Part shown: piece after piece, positions 7,951-20,858 of the stretch
Position numbering within the stretch: position 1 is the first letter of the stretch
Layout of the letters: each line of letters begins with the position of its first letter
Origin: Zootoca vivipara
Lineage: Eukaryota
Assembly (NCBI RefSeq): GCF_963506605.1
Contig: NC_083276.1
Location: 82,460,001 to 82,524,000, forward strand
Direction of reading: 5' to 3'
Length of the DNA: 64,000 bases
The notes under the pieces: generated by a model
The model's input: the letters and a program-made list of their open reading frames with translations, nothing else
The model's database searches: none
Told to the model about the DNA's origin: nothing
Translations under genes and position numbers: made by a program

Positions 7951-8814
7951 TGCTTCAGTTGAAGTGCAGTGCTTGGGAAATCCTGTTTTGATATCCAGTG
8001 CAGTCTTCCAATTGTTAAAAACACTGACAGAGAAAGATCCATTATTTTCTCTTTCAATATATTTAACAAAAATATATGTCACAGGAGACAGACTATTCCA
8101 ATCAGGAGTATTCATTGTTCCAATTACGATTAAACATTTCATTCATGGTTTCAGCCAAGAGGAGACTGAATCAACTGAATCACTGGGACATACTAACATG
8201 CAGACACCCTTTGTGTATACAGGGCATAAAGAATGTCAGGACTGCGACATTCAGGACTGTGACAGATGTGGTCCTCATGTGACTCTAAGTCCATAGGACA
8301 TTCCCAAGGTAACCCTTATTCATTAGACAATGTCTTCCATGAGCCTCCTCAAGTACTTTTGCCTGCCTGGAAGGTGATATTGAATTATCCCACTGAGCTT
8401 CAGGTTATGGGAGGTGATAGGAAGAATTGGTCCCTGATTTTTGAGTGAATTTCTGAGGTGCACTAGCGGTGGAGGTTAAATTGAATTTTGTTTACATTAA
8501 ATGACTTAATTTGTACTTCTTGAACCAACATGCAAACCAAGATTCAGCTATCCTTAGAAAAGGGGGACTTCCCTGATTTTTATGATGCCACGTTCTAAAA
8601 AGAACATTAGGTACAAATATGCATATATTCGTGAAAACAACATTCAAAACTAGATTATATAAGGAAAAAATCACTTCAAAAATTGTCATATTAGTCAAAA
8701 CTGCATAGAAAAATGTGCTTATTACAATATATTTGCACTAAACTGCTAGGAAACTGCTGGGATTAAAAATATATACTTTTATTTTCTTCCTACAGGGAAA
8801 CTTTGGAGTAAATA

Positions 8815-9747
8815 ATGGAATACACAAATCACAGCATTGTGACTGAATTCATCCTTCTGGGCTTCATGGATCATCCCGAGTTGTTGACCATTCTCTTCCT
8901 GGCATTTCTCTTGATCTACATTGTCACAGTCTCAGGAAATCTTGGCATCATCATCCTAGCCGCTCTTGATGCAAACCTTCATACCCCAATGTACTTTTTC
9001 CTCAGCAACCTGTCCTTGGTTGACGTTGGCTATTCCACCACGATTGCTCCTAGGTTGCTGATGACCTTTCTACAAAAGAATAGCACTATTACATTCACAG
9101 AGTGTACTATGCAGTTCTTCTTTTTCTGTCTGTTTGTCACAGTTGAAACTTGCCTTCTTGCTGTTATGGCTTATGATCGCTTTACTGCCATTTGCAACCC
9201 ATTACTCTATTTTGTTGCCATGTCTAAAAAGCTCTGTCTGGTGTTAGTAATAGGTGCATATATTTGTGGCTTTGTAAATTCTGCTGCTCAGACTTCGGTG
9301 ATATTTAGCCTGTCTTTCTGCAGCTCAAATGTTATCAATCATTTCTTTTGTGACGTTCCTCCCATCCTGAAACTTTCCTGTTCAAGCACAGAACTGGCTA
9401 ACACTGTGCATTTCATCTTTGCTACTTCAATAATCATGACCACTTTGTTGATTATCGTCATCTCCTATACCTACATCATTGTTGCCATCCTGCGGATTCG
9501 CTCTGCCCAGGGCAGACACAAAGCCTTTTCCACTTGTGCCTCTCACTTCATGGCAGTTACAATCTTTTATGGGACCATCATCTTTATGTATCTGAGGCCC
9601 AATTCTGGGGTCTCAGATGAAGATAAAATTGTTTCAGTGTTCTATACTCTTGTGATCCCGATGCTAAATCCATTGATTTACAGTTTGAGAAATAAAGATG
9701 TGAAGGATGCTTTCATAAAAATGAGAGGGAAAATTTCATTAAAATAA
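8815..9747 (+). CDS. Olfactory receptor, class II family 5-like (MEY subfamily), 310 aa
   Basis: [45 protein letters not shown]; N-glycosylation sequon at N5; acceptor TTTTCTTCCTACAG ends at 8795. Confidence 0.97.
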
Positions 9748-13260: not shown

Positions 13261-13634
13261 GTTGTTGTTGTTTGTTTGTTTTGGTGAGTGCTGAAGGTGT
13301 GTTCTGCTTAATGCCATTGCTGCCCAATGTGATTAATGGGACCTACCCCTATGTTTCAAGTTTGGAACCTATAATCTCAGCAACTCCTGACCTGGAATGC
13401 TCCTGACCTGGAAACCCAAAAAGGATATCTTTTTCAGAGTTTTTCTTCTCCTAGATGGGCTATCTTCCCACCTTGACTAGCCCCATCTGCCTCTCCCTTT
13501 CCTCTACAGCAAGTGCGGAAGTGGCCTTCTTGAACATTGAACCCACTATTGGTCTTGTCCGCTCAATTTGACGGAGCCTGTCTTCACATGAAGGGGAAGT
13601 CCCTATCACACCAAGGCTTTGAGACCATGGCTAC

Positions 13635-14061
13635 TGTCACAGTGGCCGGAGCGGGCTACTTCAGAGTAACGACTCTACACAGCTCTGCATTTTATCTTTT
13701 ATTGGTGCTGCGTATTTACAGTGCTGAAGGCAATGCTATTTACAAGGACACATCTTCTCAGCTTGAATCAGAACCTCCGAATGGCGTTTGGCGCGTTTTT
13801 CTCCAACAAAACAACTTTGGTAGACCCATCCTCTTCCCTCTCCGCTTTCTGCGCAATTCCGGAGTTGGGGGGATGGGTCTGCCCCCCTTGCTTGCCCCTT
13901 CCTGTCCCACCTGGGACCCTGGCTCCGCTACCTTGTCTGAGCCTCGGACACGACTTCCTGCTTCCCTACTGGAATCGGAACTCTCCCTGCTTTCCCCTGC
14001 GCTCGGGGATGGGCTTGAACTCAGGAGGGGAGGGACTTCGCGATATCCCCTGTCCCTCACA
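13635..14061 (-). repeat. 3' LTR
   Basis: Differs from 19004-19430 at 2 positions by eye. Confidence 0.95.
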
Positions 14062-17000
14062 TCCATCCCCCTCCCAAGCTCCCCTTCTCCCCTCCCAGGG
14101 GGCTCCCCGGGTGTCGGTGACGACTGAAAGCCTAAAAACTCTGTACTTTCCAAGCCCGTAGGTGTGAACACCTCCCCCCAGTCCTGCGAGCTCCCTCCTT
14201 CCGCCTGGGAGGACTGAAATCCCAAAAAGTCTGTGGTGTCAGAGCTGGTGGGGGTAAAAATACGCTGCCAGTCTGCCTCTTCCTCTGACAGGGTGGACCT
14301 CGGAGACACCCATACCTCTTCCTCCGGGTCCTCAAACTCCGCTTCCCATCCCCATGGTGAACTGCTCTCCACTACTTCCTCCCCCTCCCCCTCCCCCTCC
14401 CTTTCCATGTGCCAGGGCTTGGGTCTGTGTGGGAAGAGGGCGTGAAATTCTTCCACCAAGAATTCCTCCTGTATCTGAGTGGCCGGGACCCATTCATTCT
14501 GGGACGGCGGGGCATCCTCCCATGCCATGAGGTACTCCAGCCCCCCCACCCCTCTCCTTGAATCAAGGATGGCCGTGGCCTCATTGAGTTGCTCCCTGCC
14601 TCCCCTCTCCCCCCCTCCCTCGGGGGTCTGTTCGCTGTCTCGGAGCCTGCTGCTTTCCCTGTACGGCGACAGCAGTGATCTATGAAATACTGGATGCACC
14701 CTCATGTCCTCTGGCAGTGCCAGCCTGAAGGCAACCAGGTTGACCTGTTGCATGACCGTGAAGGGGCCCAGCCGTCTGGGTGCCAGCTTTTTGCACCTCC
14801 CTCTGGTGGGAAGGCCCTCCGAGGACAACCAAACCTTGTCCCCCACCCTGATGACCTCCCCTTGTCGCCTGTGGCGATCTGCCCCCTTCTTGTACGCTTC
14901 CTTGGCTCTCTCCAAGTGTTCTCTGAGCTGCTGGTGCACCGTCTCCAGTTCCTCTGCCCAATCCTCTGCCTGTGGGCCCTCCTCCTCCTCCTCCCCCTCC
15001 CTCTCCGGGAAAGATCTGAGGTCGCGCCCGTAGTTGGCCTTAAAGGGCGACACCCCTGTGGAGATGTGCACTGCATTGTTGTAGGCAAATTCTGCCAGTG
15101 GCAGGCGATCCACCCAGTCCGTTTGCCTCTGGCTGACGTAGCATCTCAGGTACTGCTGCAGAATGGCGTTGACCCTCTCCGCCTGTCCATTGGTCTGCGG
15201 GTGCCGAGCCGTCGACAAGCTGACCTCCACCTGCAGGAGGTTCATGAGCCGCCTCCAGAACCTGGAAACAAATTGGCGGCCTCGATCCAAAATAACTCTT
15301 AAAGGTAATCCATGCAGTCTGAATACGTGGTCAACAAACAGTTTGGCTGTCTCTTCTGCAGAGACCGCCCTGGCACACGGTATAAAATGGCACATTTTGG
15401 ACATGAGGTCCACCACCACCAACACTGCGGTCTTGCCCCTGGACGACGGCAGGTCTGTGATGAAGTCCATGGACACTACTTCCCACGGCCTGTGCGGTGT
15501 GGCTAATGGCTCCAGCAACCCTGCTGGTGGTGCTCTGACCACCTTTGCTCGCTGGCAGGTGTCACAGCCCCTTACATAGTCCCGAACATCTTCCCGCACC
15601 CCTGGCCACCAGAAGTGTCTCATGACTAGGTGAGTGGTTTTGTCCCTTCCAAAATGACCCGCCGTTGGGTTGTCGTGCATCTGCTTGAGGACCTTACCTC
15701 TGAGCTGGTTGGTGGGCAGGTACAGGGCTCCCCTGTAAAAAAGGAGCCCCCCGCGTTCTGCAAAGTCCTTTGCCTGCTCCCTCCCCCCTCGCAGCTCTCT
15801 GAAGATGCGGGTGGCAAACTCATCTGCTGCCGTCAGTGCTGTGAGTTCTGCCTCGCTCACCACTGCTGCTCCGCAGGACCATGCTGATGGGGGGGGGGAA
15901 ATGTGCCGGGGTGCTGGTGGCAACTCCTCCTCCATGTACTCTGGCTTGCGGGAGAGGGCATCCGCCCTGACGTTCTGCTCCCCCGGTATGTAGTGGATGG
16001 AGAAGTTGAAGTGCGAGAAGAACTCTGCCCACCGTATCTGCCGCTGGTTGAGCACCCTGGCTGTTCTCCAGAACTCCAGGTTTTTGTGGTCTGTGCATAC
16101 CTGAATGGGGTGCTTGGCGCCCACCAGGAAATGTCTCCAGTGTTTAAACGCAGAATGGATCGCGAGAAGTTCCTTATCAAACACCGTGTAGTTGCGCTCT
16201 GGCTGGGTCAGCTTTCTGGAGAAAAAGGCACAGGGTCTCCACTCTCTGTCGGCATCCAGTTGCAGCAGGATCGCTCCCAAAACTCTGTCTGAAGCGTTGG
16301 TTTCCACGCGTAGGGGCGCATCCTGCACCACGTGGAACAGGTTCTGGTCTGAAGCGAACACCCTCTTGAGGCTTTCGAACGCTGCTTGCGCCTCCGGCGT
16401 CCACCTGAACTTCTGCTTGCCTCTCAGGCAGTCCGTGATGGGAGCCGTAACACGAGAGAAGTTCTTGATGAACTTCCTGTAGAAGTTGGCGAAGCCTAAT
16501 AGGCGTTGGGCATCTTTGCGCGTCCTGGGGCTGTGCCAGTCCAGGATGGCCTGCACCTTGTCCTTGTCCATCGCTAGCCCCTTGTCTGACAGCTTGTAGC
16601 CCAGGAAGTCCACCTCTTTGGTGTGAAACTTGCACTTCTCCAGCTTCACATACAGGTGGTGCTCCTTCAGGCGCTGCAACACCTCCCTGACATCCTTCAC
16701 ATGCTGCACTGGGTCATTGGAGTAAATAAGGATGTCATCTAGGAAGACCAAGCAGTTCTTGAAGAGGAGGGACCCCAGGACGTGGTGCATGAAGGCCTGG
16801 AAGCATGCTGAGCCCCGTTGCAAACCGAAGGGCATCACCAGATATTCAAAAGAGCCCAGCGGCGTGAACATCGTGGTCTTCCACTCATCGCCTTCCCGGA
16901 TCCTGATCAAGTTGTACGCCCCCCTCAGGTCGAGCGTGCCGCTGTCAGCAGATCGTCCACTCTGGGCATTGGGAAAGCCACCGGTTCTGTCATGTTGTTC

Positions 17001-17870
17001 AGCCGTCTAAAATCCACCACCAGGCGGCACTGTTGCGTGTCTTTCTTGTCCACCCAGAAGACCGGGCTGCCCCCTGCTGCCTTGCTTTCTCTGATGAACC
17101 CCCTCTTGAGGTTCTTGTCTATAAACGCACGCAGATCCTCCAGTTCCTGATCTGACATGGAGTACAGCTTGGCTGGGGGTAGCGTGGCCCCTGGCACCAG
17201 GTTGATCTGGCAGTCAAACGACCTGTGCGGGGGTAGGTGGTCGGATTCCGCTTCACTGAAGACCTCCTGCAGGTCCCAGTACGGCTTGGGTATCGCCTCA
17301 CCCCCCTTGACGTGCATGGTGGCCACCGTGGCTATTGGAGGCCCCTCCCCTGGTTGGTGCTGCATGCAATGTTCCAGACAAAAGTCTGATCCAAACGTGA
17401 TGCATCTCTGGTGCCAACTGATGGAGGGGTCATTGCGCGCCAGCCAGCTCATGCCCAAGACGATGGGGGGGTCTGAGATGGTGGTGACGTTGAATGCCAG
17501 TGTCTCAGAGTGCCGTCCCACCGTCATTCTCATGGGGGGGGGTCTGGTGGGTGATGGCCCCTCCCAGCAACTCCCTGCCGTCAATGGTGGAGACGTGCAG
17601 GGGAAAATCCAGCTGCAGAAGTTGGATCTGGTGCGCTTCTGCAAAGTTTCTCGAAAAGAAGTTGGCAGAGGCACCTGAGTCGATTAACGCGAGGACCGTC
17701 AGGGGATACCCATTAGGGAGCGTTAACGTCACTTCTAGAACCACCCCTGCTCTGGGGTGGGTGGGCTGGCGCTGCTCCTCGCTGTGCGGGTGGGTGGGCT
17801 GGGGCTGTTGTTTGCCGATTGCGCCTGGCTGCTGCCCCTTGTCTCCTGCAGCCAGGCTGTCTCGTTTCCC
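13758..17870 (-). pseudogene. pol: pol (protease, RT, RNase H, integrase, chromodomain, acidic tail) with two frameshifts
   Basis: LIDSGAS; VDFRRLN; LDLRGAY; MPFGL; FLDDILIY; TNASD (canonical TDASD); HHCC zinc finger; DDE core; GPF; chromodomain EYLMAWED...NEWVP. Frameshifts at the G9 run (17534-17542) and at a small deletion near 16936. Confidence 0.92.
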
Positions 17871-18961
17871 TGCTGTGGTGCTGCGTCAGTGGGGGAGGGC
17901 ACAACCGTTCCCGCCTTTCCTTGCCATTCCCTGCGATGTGGGCAGTCTCTGACGAGATGCTGAGGGGAGTTGCAGAGAAAGCAATTCCCGCCTCTTCCCT
18001 CCTTGCGTCTTGGCGCCGCTGGGGTTTGAAAAGCCCCCGCGCGCGCGCTATCAATTTGCATGGGTTCCTGGTCTTGGCTGGCCCCTGGCATGGCCTGAGA
18101 TGGCTGTTGGGGGAGTGGCTTCTCCTGCGACCGTGGGAACCAAGCTCGCTTTGCGCGCATTGGCTGCTTGTCGTTCCATCGGGATTCCTGTCTCACCCCC
18201 ACCGCCAGAGCCGCTTTGCTCAGCTGATCCATATTACTGGGCTTTGGACCTCTCGAGAGCTCATCTTTCACATCCTCATTCAACCCCAGGTAGAACGCCG
18301 CTTCCATCGGAGGCGAGTGCAGTTCCCACCCCAGTCTGTGCACCAGCTTGGTGAATCTTGACCAATATTCGCGAACTGTCATTTTTCCTTGTCGTAAATT
18401 ATGCAGTTCCTCTTTGGTCTGGTCCATATGGCTATCAGACGCATACATTGTTTTTAAAGCCCCTAAAAATAGTTTGACATCCTTCATGCAAGGATTTTTT
18501 GTCGCGATTAACGGTCTAAGCCACTCCCTGGCTGCCCCGGTAAGGTGTTCCACTATAAACGCTACTCTGTGCGCATCATCAGGGAACTCATCATGGTGCA
18601 GCTCAAGAGCATACACGATCTCAGTCTCAAAGCCATGATATCCCCTCGGATCTCCATTGAACTTGCTTACTAGGGTCCCTGCTCTCCTTCCTGGCAGCAC
18701 TTGGAGTTGGGGTCCCCTTCCTCCCTTGTTTTTCTCTGCATCCAGCTTGTTCTGGAGGTCCACCGCCACCGCCCTTAACTGCTGCTCTTTCTCCTGTAGC
18801 GCTCTCACCTGTTCCGCAAGGTGTTGCCTGTCCTCCTGGACCTTCTTCGTCTCTTCTTTAGCTGCCTTCAATTCTCCCTGTGCCTGTAACGCCAGTTGCT
18901 GCAGGTCCTGCTGGGCTTTCTCTGCGATCTGCCGCCATTTCTCCGCTTCTGGCGCGCTCAT
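17735..18961 (-). CDS. gag: gag, 408 aa (coiled coil, PEG10/RTL-like capsid, CCHC knuckle)
   Basis: First ATG at 18961 (MSAPEAEKW); KFNGDP; LRQGKMTVREY; CFLCNSPQHLVRDC. Confidence 0.92.
   Translation of the reverse strand: MSAPEAEKWRQIAEKAQQDLQQLALQAQGELKAAKEETKKVQEDRQHLAEQVRALQEKEQQLRAVAVDLQNKLDAEKNKGGRGPQLQVLPGRRAGTLVSKFNGDPRGYHGFETEIVYALELHHDEFPDDAHRVAFIVEHLTGAAREWLRPLIATKNPCMKDVKLFLGALKTMYASDSHMDQTKEELHNLRQGKMTVREYWSRFTKLVHRLGWELHSPPMEAAFYLGLNEDVKDELSRGPKPSNMDQLSKAALAVGVRQESRWNDKQPMRAKRAWFPRSQEKPLPQQPSQAMPGASQDQEPMQIDSARAGAFQTPAAPRRKEGRGGNCFLCNSPQHLVRDCPHRREWQGKAGTVVPSPTDAAPQQGNETAWLQETRGSSQAQSANNSPSPPTRTARSSASPPTPEQGWF
17823..17870 (-). promoter_or_regulatory. -1 ribosomal frameshift signal (gag-pol)
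   Basis: Slippery G GGA AAC (17864-17870), 6-nt spacer, perfect 10-bp stem GCCTGGCTGC/GCAGCCAGGC; the -1 frame is open into the protease. Confidence 0.85.
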
Positions 18962-19003
18962 CCCGGCAACTCCAAAGTAGCCCAAAAAAGATTCGGAGGT
19001 TGC

Positions 19004-19430
19004 TGTCACAGTGGCCGGAGCGGGCTACTTCAGAGTAACGACTCTACACAGCTCTGCATTTTATCTTTTATTGGTGCTGCGTATTTACAGTGCTGAAGGC
19101 AATGCTATTTACAAGGACACATCTTCTCAGCTTGAATCAGAACCTCCGAATGGCGTTTGGCGCGTTTTTCTCCAACATAACAACTTTGGTAGACCCATCC
19201 CCTTCCCTCTCCGCTTTCTGCGCAATTCCGGAGTTGGGGGGATGGGTCTGCCCCCCTTGCTTGCCCCTTCCTGTCCCACCTGGGACCCTGGCTCCGCTAC
19301 CTTGTCTGAGCCTCGGACACGACTTCCTGCTTCCCTACTGGAATCGGAACTCTCCCTGCTTTCCCCTGCGCTCGGGGATGGGCTTGAACTCAGGAGGGGA
19401 GGGACTTCGCGATATCCCCTGTCCCTCACA
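19004..19430 (-). repeat. 5' LTR
   Basis: TG...CA ends; AATAAA on the - strand at 19067-19072. Confidence 0.95.
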
Positions 19431-19922
19431 TCCACGATCATGTGGCCTAGCCAACCAGTCAAAGTCATTTCCCATGGTGTGGACACTGTCACATGTTGAT
19501 AGCTTCTAGGAGCCACAGGTGAGTACGGGCTGGGACAAAAGGTGGACAAAATACCCCTGAAGGAGCATGCCGTGTCTCCCACAAGAAGCACTAACCCTTC
19601 CCTAACTATGTAACTCAAACCTCTCAAACTAATATGCAAATCCAAATTCTGTTATCCTTAAGTGGGCATTCCGCTGAATTTTGTGGTGTAGTTCGCCAAA
19701 AAAGAGTTCAAAAATGCATATATTGGGGAAGCTGTTCATAAAATGCACATATTAGTGCAAATAAACTTTATCACCTTGGAGTAAATCCATTGCAAAAATG
19801 TGCATGTTACTCAAAACTGCATATAGAAAGGTGTTTATTAGGAGAAATTTGCACTAAAATGCTGATAAATTTTCATGAGGATTTTAAAAAGTACTTGTTT
19901 CAAATGTATTTTGCCATAAATC

Positions 19923-20858
19923 ATGGAATATATGAATCACAGTATTGTGACTGAATTCATCCTTCTGGGCTTTATGGAACATCCAGAGCTGTGGACCATT
20001 CTCTTCCTGGCATTTCTCTTGATCTACATTGTCACAGTCTCAGGAAATCTTGGCATCATCATCCTAGCCGCTCTTGATGCAAACCTTCATACCCCAATGT
20101 ACTTTTTCCTCAGCAACCTGTCCTTGGTTGACGTTGGCTATTCCACCACTATCGCTCCTAGGTTGCTGATGACCTTTCTACAAGAGAATAGCATTATTCC
20201 ATTCACAGAGTGTGCTATGCAGTTCTTCTTTTTCTGTATGTTTGGCACAGTTGAAACTTGCCTTCTAGCTGTCATGGCTTACGATCGTTTCACTGCCATT
20301 TGCAACCCATTACTCTATTATGTTGCCATGTCTACAAAGTTCTGTCTGTTGTTAGTAAAAGGTGCATATATTTGTGGATTTGTGAATTCAGCTGTTCAGA
20401 CTTCATTGATATTTAGCCTGTCTTTCTGCAGCTCAAATGTTATCGGTCATTACTTTTGTGACATTCCTCCCATCCTGAAACTTTCCTGTTCAAGCACAGA
20501 AGTGGCTAACACTGTACACTTTATCTTATGTACTGTGTTAGGTATGATCACTTTGTTGATTATCCTCATCTCTTATATCTACATCATATTTGCCATCCTA
20601 CGGATTCGCTCTGCCCAGGGCAGACACAAAGCCTTTTCCACCTGTGCCTCCCATCTCACGTCTGTCACAATCTTCTATGGGACCATCATCTTTATGTATC
20701 TGAGGCCCAATTCCAGTGTCTCAAAGGATGAAGATAAAATTGTTTCCGTGTTCTATACTCTTGTGATCCCGATGCTAAATCCATTCATCTACACTCTGAG
20801 AAATAAAGACATGAAGAATGCTTTCCTAAGGATGACAGGAAATATTTCATTAAATTAA
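19923..20858 (+). CDS. Olfactory receptor (MEY subfamily), 311 aa; intact ORF, possibly non-functional
   Basis: All OR motifs present; the upstream acceptor is missing and TM4 carries Lys146 (see findings). Confidence 0.9.

Follow-up and report, generated by a model that had tools for sequence, protein, structure and literature searches.

Candidate LEDGF/HRP2-binding motifs in the integrase tail of a lizard chromovirus clade with a damaged chromodomain

Introduction

What does a retrotransposon integrase do with a long C-terminal tail that carries two copies of an acidic FLGF peptide, a motif otherwise known from host proteins that bind LEDGF? The question is raised by an element in a stretch of 64,000 nucleotides from Zootoca vivipara, which was analysed at its full length and is here called the window. 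A preliminary description had suggested that the two peptides possibly mimic ligands of LEDGF and, more generally, of TFIIS N-terminal domains, and that they may tether the integration complex to host elongation or chromatin readers in addition to the chromodomain of the element.

Results

Structure and surroundings of the window element

The element covers positions 13635-19430 on the minus strand, to which all of its features below refer. It was identified as a young chromovirus of the sushi/Tf1 type (Ty3/gypsy), with long terminal repeats (LTRs), gag, the domain order PR-RT-RH-IN and a C-terminal chromodomain. The 5' LTR (19004..19430) and the 3' LTR (13635..14061) are both 427 nt long with TG...CA ends. 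No tRNA-type primer-binding site was found in the element; the site of 11 nt (18991..19001) is instead complementary to positions 19141-19151 of the LTR. Self-priming through such an LTR-complementary site is the arrangement of Tf1/sushi elements. The gag gene (17735..18961, with an ATG at 18961) encodes Retrotrans_gag, Ty3_capsid and a zinc knuckle, and its overlap with pol contains a G GGA AAC heptamer (17864..17870), of the type present in PEG10/sushi, which is likely to function as a -1 frameshift site.

The protease and the start of the reverse transcriptase (16925..17885) are spread across 2 frames, and the window copy is interrupted by breaks close to 17,535 and 16,935. The remainder of pol is an open frame (13758..17006) with the Pfam order RT, RNase H, integrase, SH3 and Chromo (residues 810-855), in which the integrase shows H2C2, rve with D-35-E, and SH3 segments. 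The chromodomain is followed by a tail of 220 residues that traverses the polypurine tract (14062..14075, within the pol frame) and U3, and stops in R. The U3-encoded end of pol (13797..13853) holds a basic patch, likely a nuclear localization signal, and an LFCWR motif. The patch and the motif were kept across the lineages described below despite their diverged tails, the motif as L[LF]CW[KR] in 3 of the 4 lineages and in a related W-C form in the fourth.

It was also noted that the LTRs differ at just 2 of 427 positions, and yet the flanks of the element at 13634 and 19431 (GTGGA and GTAGC) do not form a matching target-site duplication. This lowers the confidence in a clean original insertion site, not in the assignment to the family, and may be due to recombination between 2 copies or to a rearranged flank. 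Eight olfactory-receptor signatures were identified in the window, including those at 8812-9747 and 19920-20858, and the element is located among them and not within an evident transcribed gene body. Olfactory-receptor clusters are mostly silent chromatin. One intact olfactory-receptor frame begins about 490 nt from the end of the element, which is located upstream of it. A further frame at 23003-23449 on the minus strand, recognised by eye, resembles a fragment of a LINE reverse transcriptase.

In the portion examined of 2 RNA runs, about 6% of each, 783 and 1,039 reads mapped to the element, and since these reads were mostly under 95% alike they were assigned to other copies of the family. 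The tail was covered by RNA reads, of mixed strand in one run, and none of the runs listed as containing the stretch was recorded as RNA. Among the 40 read differences listed out of 805, a small and selected sample, 7 were located in the tail, 5 of which were replacement and 2 synonymous differences, none in a codon for the W, the F or the FxGF core. In run X1, the summed depth of the contigs, which is not a copy number, exceeded the depth of single junction contigs by a factor of thousands, and the element was also present under another organism label (X14); the 2 observations together suggest a large young family.

Two motif copies under purifying selection

Both peptides were confirmed in the pol tail, DFLGF at 14217-14231 and EFLGF at 14127-14141, as were the codon differences between them (TTG/TTA and GGA/GGC). 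The motif was found to be larger than FxGF alone, and consists of W-x3-F, an acidic or S/T-rich linker of 8-9 residues, and FxGF. In the first copy (14208..14273), W913-x3-F917 is separated by a 9-residue S/T/D linker from F927-L-G-F930, and in the second (14118..14183), W943-x3-F947 is separated by 9 residues from F957-L-G-F960; both are predicted LEDGF/HRP2 IBD-binding motifs. The repeat of 30 residues in the preliminary description was retained as the distance from W913 to W943, while the repeated unit itself was shortened to about 22 residues.

The comparison of the 2 units (22 codons) revealed differences at 10.5 of 14.3 synonymous sites and at 11.5 of 51.7 replacement sites (pS = 0.73, pN = 0.22, Fisher p about 0.001), in agreement with the selection on the peptide that had been proposed from the codon differences. 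The much larger divergence at synonymous than at replacement sites shows that the duplication is an old one and that the peptide rather than the DNA has been kept, by purifying selection between the 2 window copies. A constraint at the DNA or RNA level near the polypurine tract was considered and ruled out, as the synonymous sites are near saturation.

We also considered that the tail might be neutral low-complexity read-through and its repeat a recent duplication that arose by chance. Such a tail could well be acidic, rich in G and unalignable between lineages, as this one is, but the near saturation of synonymous sites between copies in which W, F and FLGF are fixed, and the persistence of the motif in 4 lineages, have already largely refuted this explanation. 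Furthermore, when the 117-residue part of the tail that precedes the LTR was shuffled 20,000 times, 4.2% of the shuffles contained one FxGF and only 0.17% contained one complete motif, as compared to the 2 observed. We therefore regard neutrality as very improbable.

The linkers of the window copies are rich in S and T and contain 2 D/E in 9 residues. The strict form D/ExExFxGF is absent from both copies, with T at the position of the second E, 2 places before FxGF. Since the linkers contain so few acidic residues and the strict form is absent, the window motifs would depend on phosphorylation. A predicted structure, weak in that it was modelled from an alignment of 9 rows, left the tail disordered and undocked (pLDDT about 50), and the helix ahead of W913 was barely predicted and appeared faint in the model. 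The chromodomain was predicted to fold (pLDDT about 94).

Conservation of the motif in a single clade

To place the motif among relatives, we used a set of proteins that had been enlarged by cluster members and 2 profile searches. By means of a chromodomain signature, 47 rows of the clade were selected, of which 3 with tails under 25 residues were dropped. The pattern F-x8/9-FxGF was present in 43 of the remaining 44 rows, the sole exception being P0202, which reads like a frame change. With the addition of P0001, which carries the motif and was missed by the signature, the count becomes 44 of the 45 clade proteins whose tail could be read, which bears out the expected conservation in related elements. 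The remaining 304 proteins (231,857 amino acids) gave 3 matches to the pattern, one of which was P0001. Most clade rows are near-copies, and the independent units are the 4 lineages.

Among the best 120 integrase matches, 11 ran into an acidic tail with FxGF at most 70 residues past the chromodomain, and a twelfth FxGF, in P0081, was located within an unrelated fused region. In a tree of 50 integrase cores, all 12 motif-bearing rows formed one branch (100/99) that comprised the 4 lineages. Their integrase cores were 60-70% identical to that of the window element, and the Anolis P0017 and Podarcis P0015 families, placed outside of the branch, were about 57% identical to it. The named members of the motif clade were from Podarcis muralis and P. 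lilfordi only. Identities between the tails of lineage representatives were 0.23-0.37, as compared to 0.23-0.30 for shuffles. The homolog search with residues 800-975 alone gave no matches, no relatives were confirmed in the viral contigs searched, the JGI metagenomes contained one distant locus (L001), and the atlas searches gave no usable match.

When linkers of 5-12 residues were allowed in the pattern, 14 instances were found in 10 of 13 representatives, and all had linkers of 8 or 9 residues. Position i-4 of the invariant F was occupied by W in 12, F in 1 and L in 1 of 18 instances, and the lineage of P0004 has W at i-2 rather than i-4. The strict D/ExExFxGF form was found in 8 of 14 instances, and S, T, E or D was present 2 places before FxGF in 17 of 18, against a background of 39% in the tails. 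Two complete copies, as in the window element, were found in P0198, P0346 and P0347.

These patterns bear on a role within the element itself, whereby the motif would fold onto its own chromodomain or integrase, bind Gag, or mark the site at which a protease trims the tail. The motif arose together with an altered chromodomain in one clade, and F-L and F-P bonds suit proteases of the retroviral type, both of which would fit such a role. However, the residue after the first F of FxGF varies (L, R, Q, H, E, K, V, W), as do the copy number (one to 2) and the position of the motif per tail, and the tail was undocked in the weak structural model. An internal function is thereby considered rather improbable.

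Likeness to host ligands of LEDGF and HRP2

The TND-interacting motif (TIM) is defined in a section of a review by a short helix, after which comes a linker of 8-16 residues that is acidic and contains S/T/G; an FxGF may follow, and is of special importance for LEDGF and HRP2 (PMC9987994). According to parts of 2 other papers, MLL1 has F129/F133 in the helix, followed by F148-L149-x-F151 (PMC8022399), and DPF3a has S instead of E 2 places before FxGF, with improved HRP2 binding upon phosphorylation of S323, S/E-x-F-x-G-F being the wider known consensus (PMC7337902). In sequence, the element motifs share this layout. An acidic, S/T-rich linker of 8 or 9 residues was present in 14 of 14 instances, with only 2 D/E in the window copies, the FxGF is located in a region predicted to be disordered, and a hydrophobic anchor (W, F or L) occurs at i-4 in 14 of 18 instances, the helix itself being faint in the model. 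P0005 and P0214 have the sequence STFHGF in common with the DPF3a IBM.

More broadly, the motifs of JPO2 (CDCA7L), MLL1, IWS1, POGZ, ASK, DPF3a and fly JIL-1 resemble those of the element in the aromatic pair at the position of the helix, the acidic S/T linker, FxGF, the disordered region, and S, T or E 2 places before FxGF. The window motif differs from the host TIMs in that it is located on the integrase of a mobile element, occurs in tandem and has W as the first anchor, and in that its ligand is predicted. POGZ is derived from a transposase but, unlike the window element, it is domesticated.

We constructed a profile (A4) of 26 positions from 9 element motifs only, cut around FxGF, and compared it with 177,635 PDB sequences. 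At E<=10 there was a single match, to the CDCA7L motif in 5YI9, a LEDGF-CDCA7L/JPO2 fusion (E 0.26). This match is weak alone, but it counts despite the non-significant E value since it belongs to a class that had been named in advance. No other LEDGF-motif fusion was among the profile matches in the PDB. A phmmer search of the PDB with the window tail alone gave chance matches or none, with no LEDGF-motif chain, and a profile of the chromodomain plus tail retrieved only chromodomains.

The proposed likeness to LEDGF ligands is thus upheld by the TIM layout (PMC9987994 and PMC7337902, in part) and the 5YI9 match, and judging from their sequences the tail motifs probably bind LEDGF/HRP2. Of the partners proposed initially, LEDGF/HRP2 is likely, and TFIIS N-terminal domains in general are probably too broad, given the special role of FxGF for LEDGF and HRP2.

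We also considered another acidic-aromatic linear motif for the trafficking or turnover of particles, such as an LC3-interacting W-x-x-I/V (LIR) or a ligand of coat adaptors or import factors. Both window copies, and 8 of 18 instances, agree with the usual form of a LIR in having W-x-x-[ILV] preceded by acidic residues. However, the other 10 instances break that form while F, the spacing of 8-9 residues and FxGF hold, and the fixed spacing to FxGF would be left unexplained. The motifs of adaptors and nucleoporins are FGxF or FxFG rather than FxGF, and the sole PDB match of the profile is an IBD ligand. We consider a different linear motif to be of low probability, and LEDGF/HRP2 binding remains the preferred reading.

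Damage to the chromodomain cage

The chromodomain of the window element (14442..14585) has a damaged aromatic cage with N808, W829 and A832. For comparison, the cage was scored in the window element and in 153 of 196 proteins that aligned through the chromodomain, after the exclusion of 43 proteins without it. In each of the 37 rows that carry FxGF within the first 200 residues of the tail, at most 2 of the 3 cage aromatics were present: 15 rows had none, 12 had one and 10 had 2, such that 27 of 37 had at most one. FxGF was found in 0 of 107 rows with an intact cage, most of which have tails too short to hold the motif. Ten rows combined a damaged cage with the absence of FxGF, 2 of which are truncated clade members. 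Since the motif and the cage damage mark the same clade, they count as one event.

Group I chromodomains have 3 cage aromatics, and group II chromodomains retain only the second and do not bind H3K9me, as described in part of PMC2832683. The window cage (N, W, A) lacks the complete group I set and matches the group II pattern, and its sequence makes the loss of H3K9me reading likely. With the cage of the window element in this state and damage throughout the clade, the proposal that the motifs act in addition to the chromodomain does not stand.

Discussion

Our leading explanation, which we favour by a modest degree, is that the reading of H3K9me has been replaced by tethering, in which the disordered integrase tail links the element via LEDGF/HRP2 to transcribed chromatin with H3K36 methylation. 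The tail would remain on the mature integrase, the W/F pair, like F129/F133 of MLL1, would adopt a short helical form that fits the first IBD pocket, and FxGF would occupy the second. Phosphorylation of the S/T linker and of the T 2 places before FxGF may supply the missing charge, in the manner of S323 in DPF3a, and 2 motif copies per subunit could increase avidity. Through its PWWP domain, the host protein would then carry the integration complex to H3K36-methylated chromatin. More tentatively, and with slightly less than an even chance in our estimation, this lizard clade may have swapped targeting modules: as the H3K9me cage decayed and one to 2 IBD-binding motifs were gained, a heterochromatin-seeking element would have turned into a gene-body-seeking one under the control of phosphorylation.

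Among the points against tethering, the window copy resides in an olfactory-receptor cluster, and plant group II chromodomains without cage residues still reach heterochromatin, as reported in part of PMC2832683. Both would agree with an alternative in which the motifs bind LEDGF/HRP2 or another TND (IWS1, TFIIS, MED26) and the gain lies in retention within the nucleus, a more stable integrase or more efficient integration, with no bias for gene bodies, the site being chosen by a group II-like chromodomain or by other factors. The sequence evidence is the same for this alternative as for tethering, and fly JIL-1 provides a precedent, being stabilised through FxGF-mediated binding of JASPer (bioRxiv 624023). 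On the other hand, LEDGF and HRP2 tethers bias lentiviral integration to active genes, according to a section of PMC9987994, and the cage decays further within the clade, down to none of 3 aromatics in 15 motif rows. Binding without targeting is therefore judged unlikely, although less so than the other alternatives, and tethering is retained as the preferred explanation.

Tethering by a motif in the integrase tail is already known. In Ty5, the targeting domain in the integrase tail binds Sir4. A short C-terminal tail motif similarly tethers gammaretroviral integrase to a host chromatin factor through the ET domain of BET proteins, as described in part of PMC8149907. The window element differs from both cases in the motif, the host factor and the type of chromatin. 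It resembles the chromoviruses of group I (MAGGY) and group II, and the CRM elements with a CR motif, in the order RT-RH-IN-SH3-chromodomain. With the lentiviruses it would share the host domain and the outcome, both of which are predicted, and as the lineages are unrelated this would represent convergence. HIV integrase binds LEDGF through its folded core and not through an FxGF motif. Its site on LEDGF overlaps the FxGF groove, according to part of PMC8022399.

No motif of this kind on a retrotransposon was found in the literature searched (titles and the starts of abstracts, outside of subscription papers and supplements), and the review section on viral mimicry in PMC9987994 names lentiviral integrases only, with no mention of transposons in that section. 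An IBD-binding motif had been expected in the Passer/pogo papers, but neither IBD nor LEDGF is mentioned in the main texts of PMC7386202 and PMC9976928.

The vertebrate sister elements, from Anolis (P0017) and Podarcis (P0015), lack FxGF and possess a full cage, in contrast to the damaged cage and extra motif of the window clade. We also observed that their integrases end with RRSARI or RRSARL (17 rows; residues 1200-1205 in P0017 and 1219-1224 in P0015), and the nucleosome-binding motif of HMGN is RRSARLSA, as given in part of PMC12487698. The ends of these intact-cage families may represent mimicry of another host motif, with the acidic patch as the target.

Motif-bearing and intact-cage families are both present in the Podarcis muralis proteome set, and targeting by the chromodomain versus the tail motif can thus be tested from existing insertions in one genome. 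If the proposed mechanism is true, imitation of the host FxGF motif for LEDGF/HRP2 would be described here in a retroelement for the first time, and the clade would have reached the lentiviral tether by a second, independent route and would exemplify the natural replacement of one targeting module by another.
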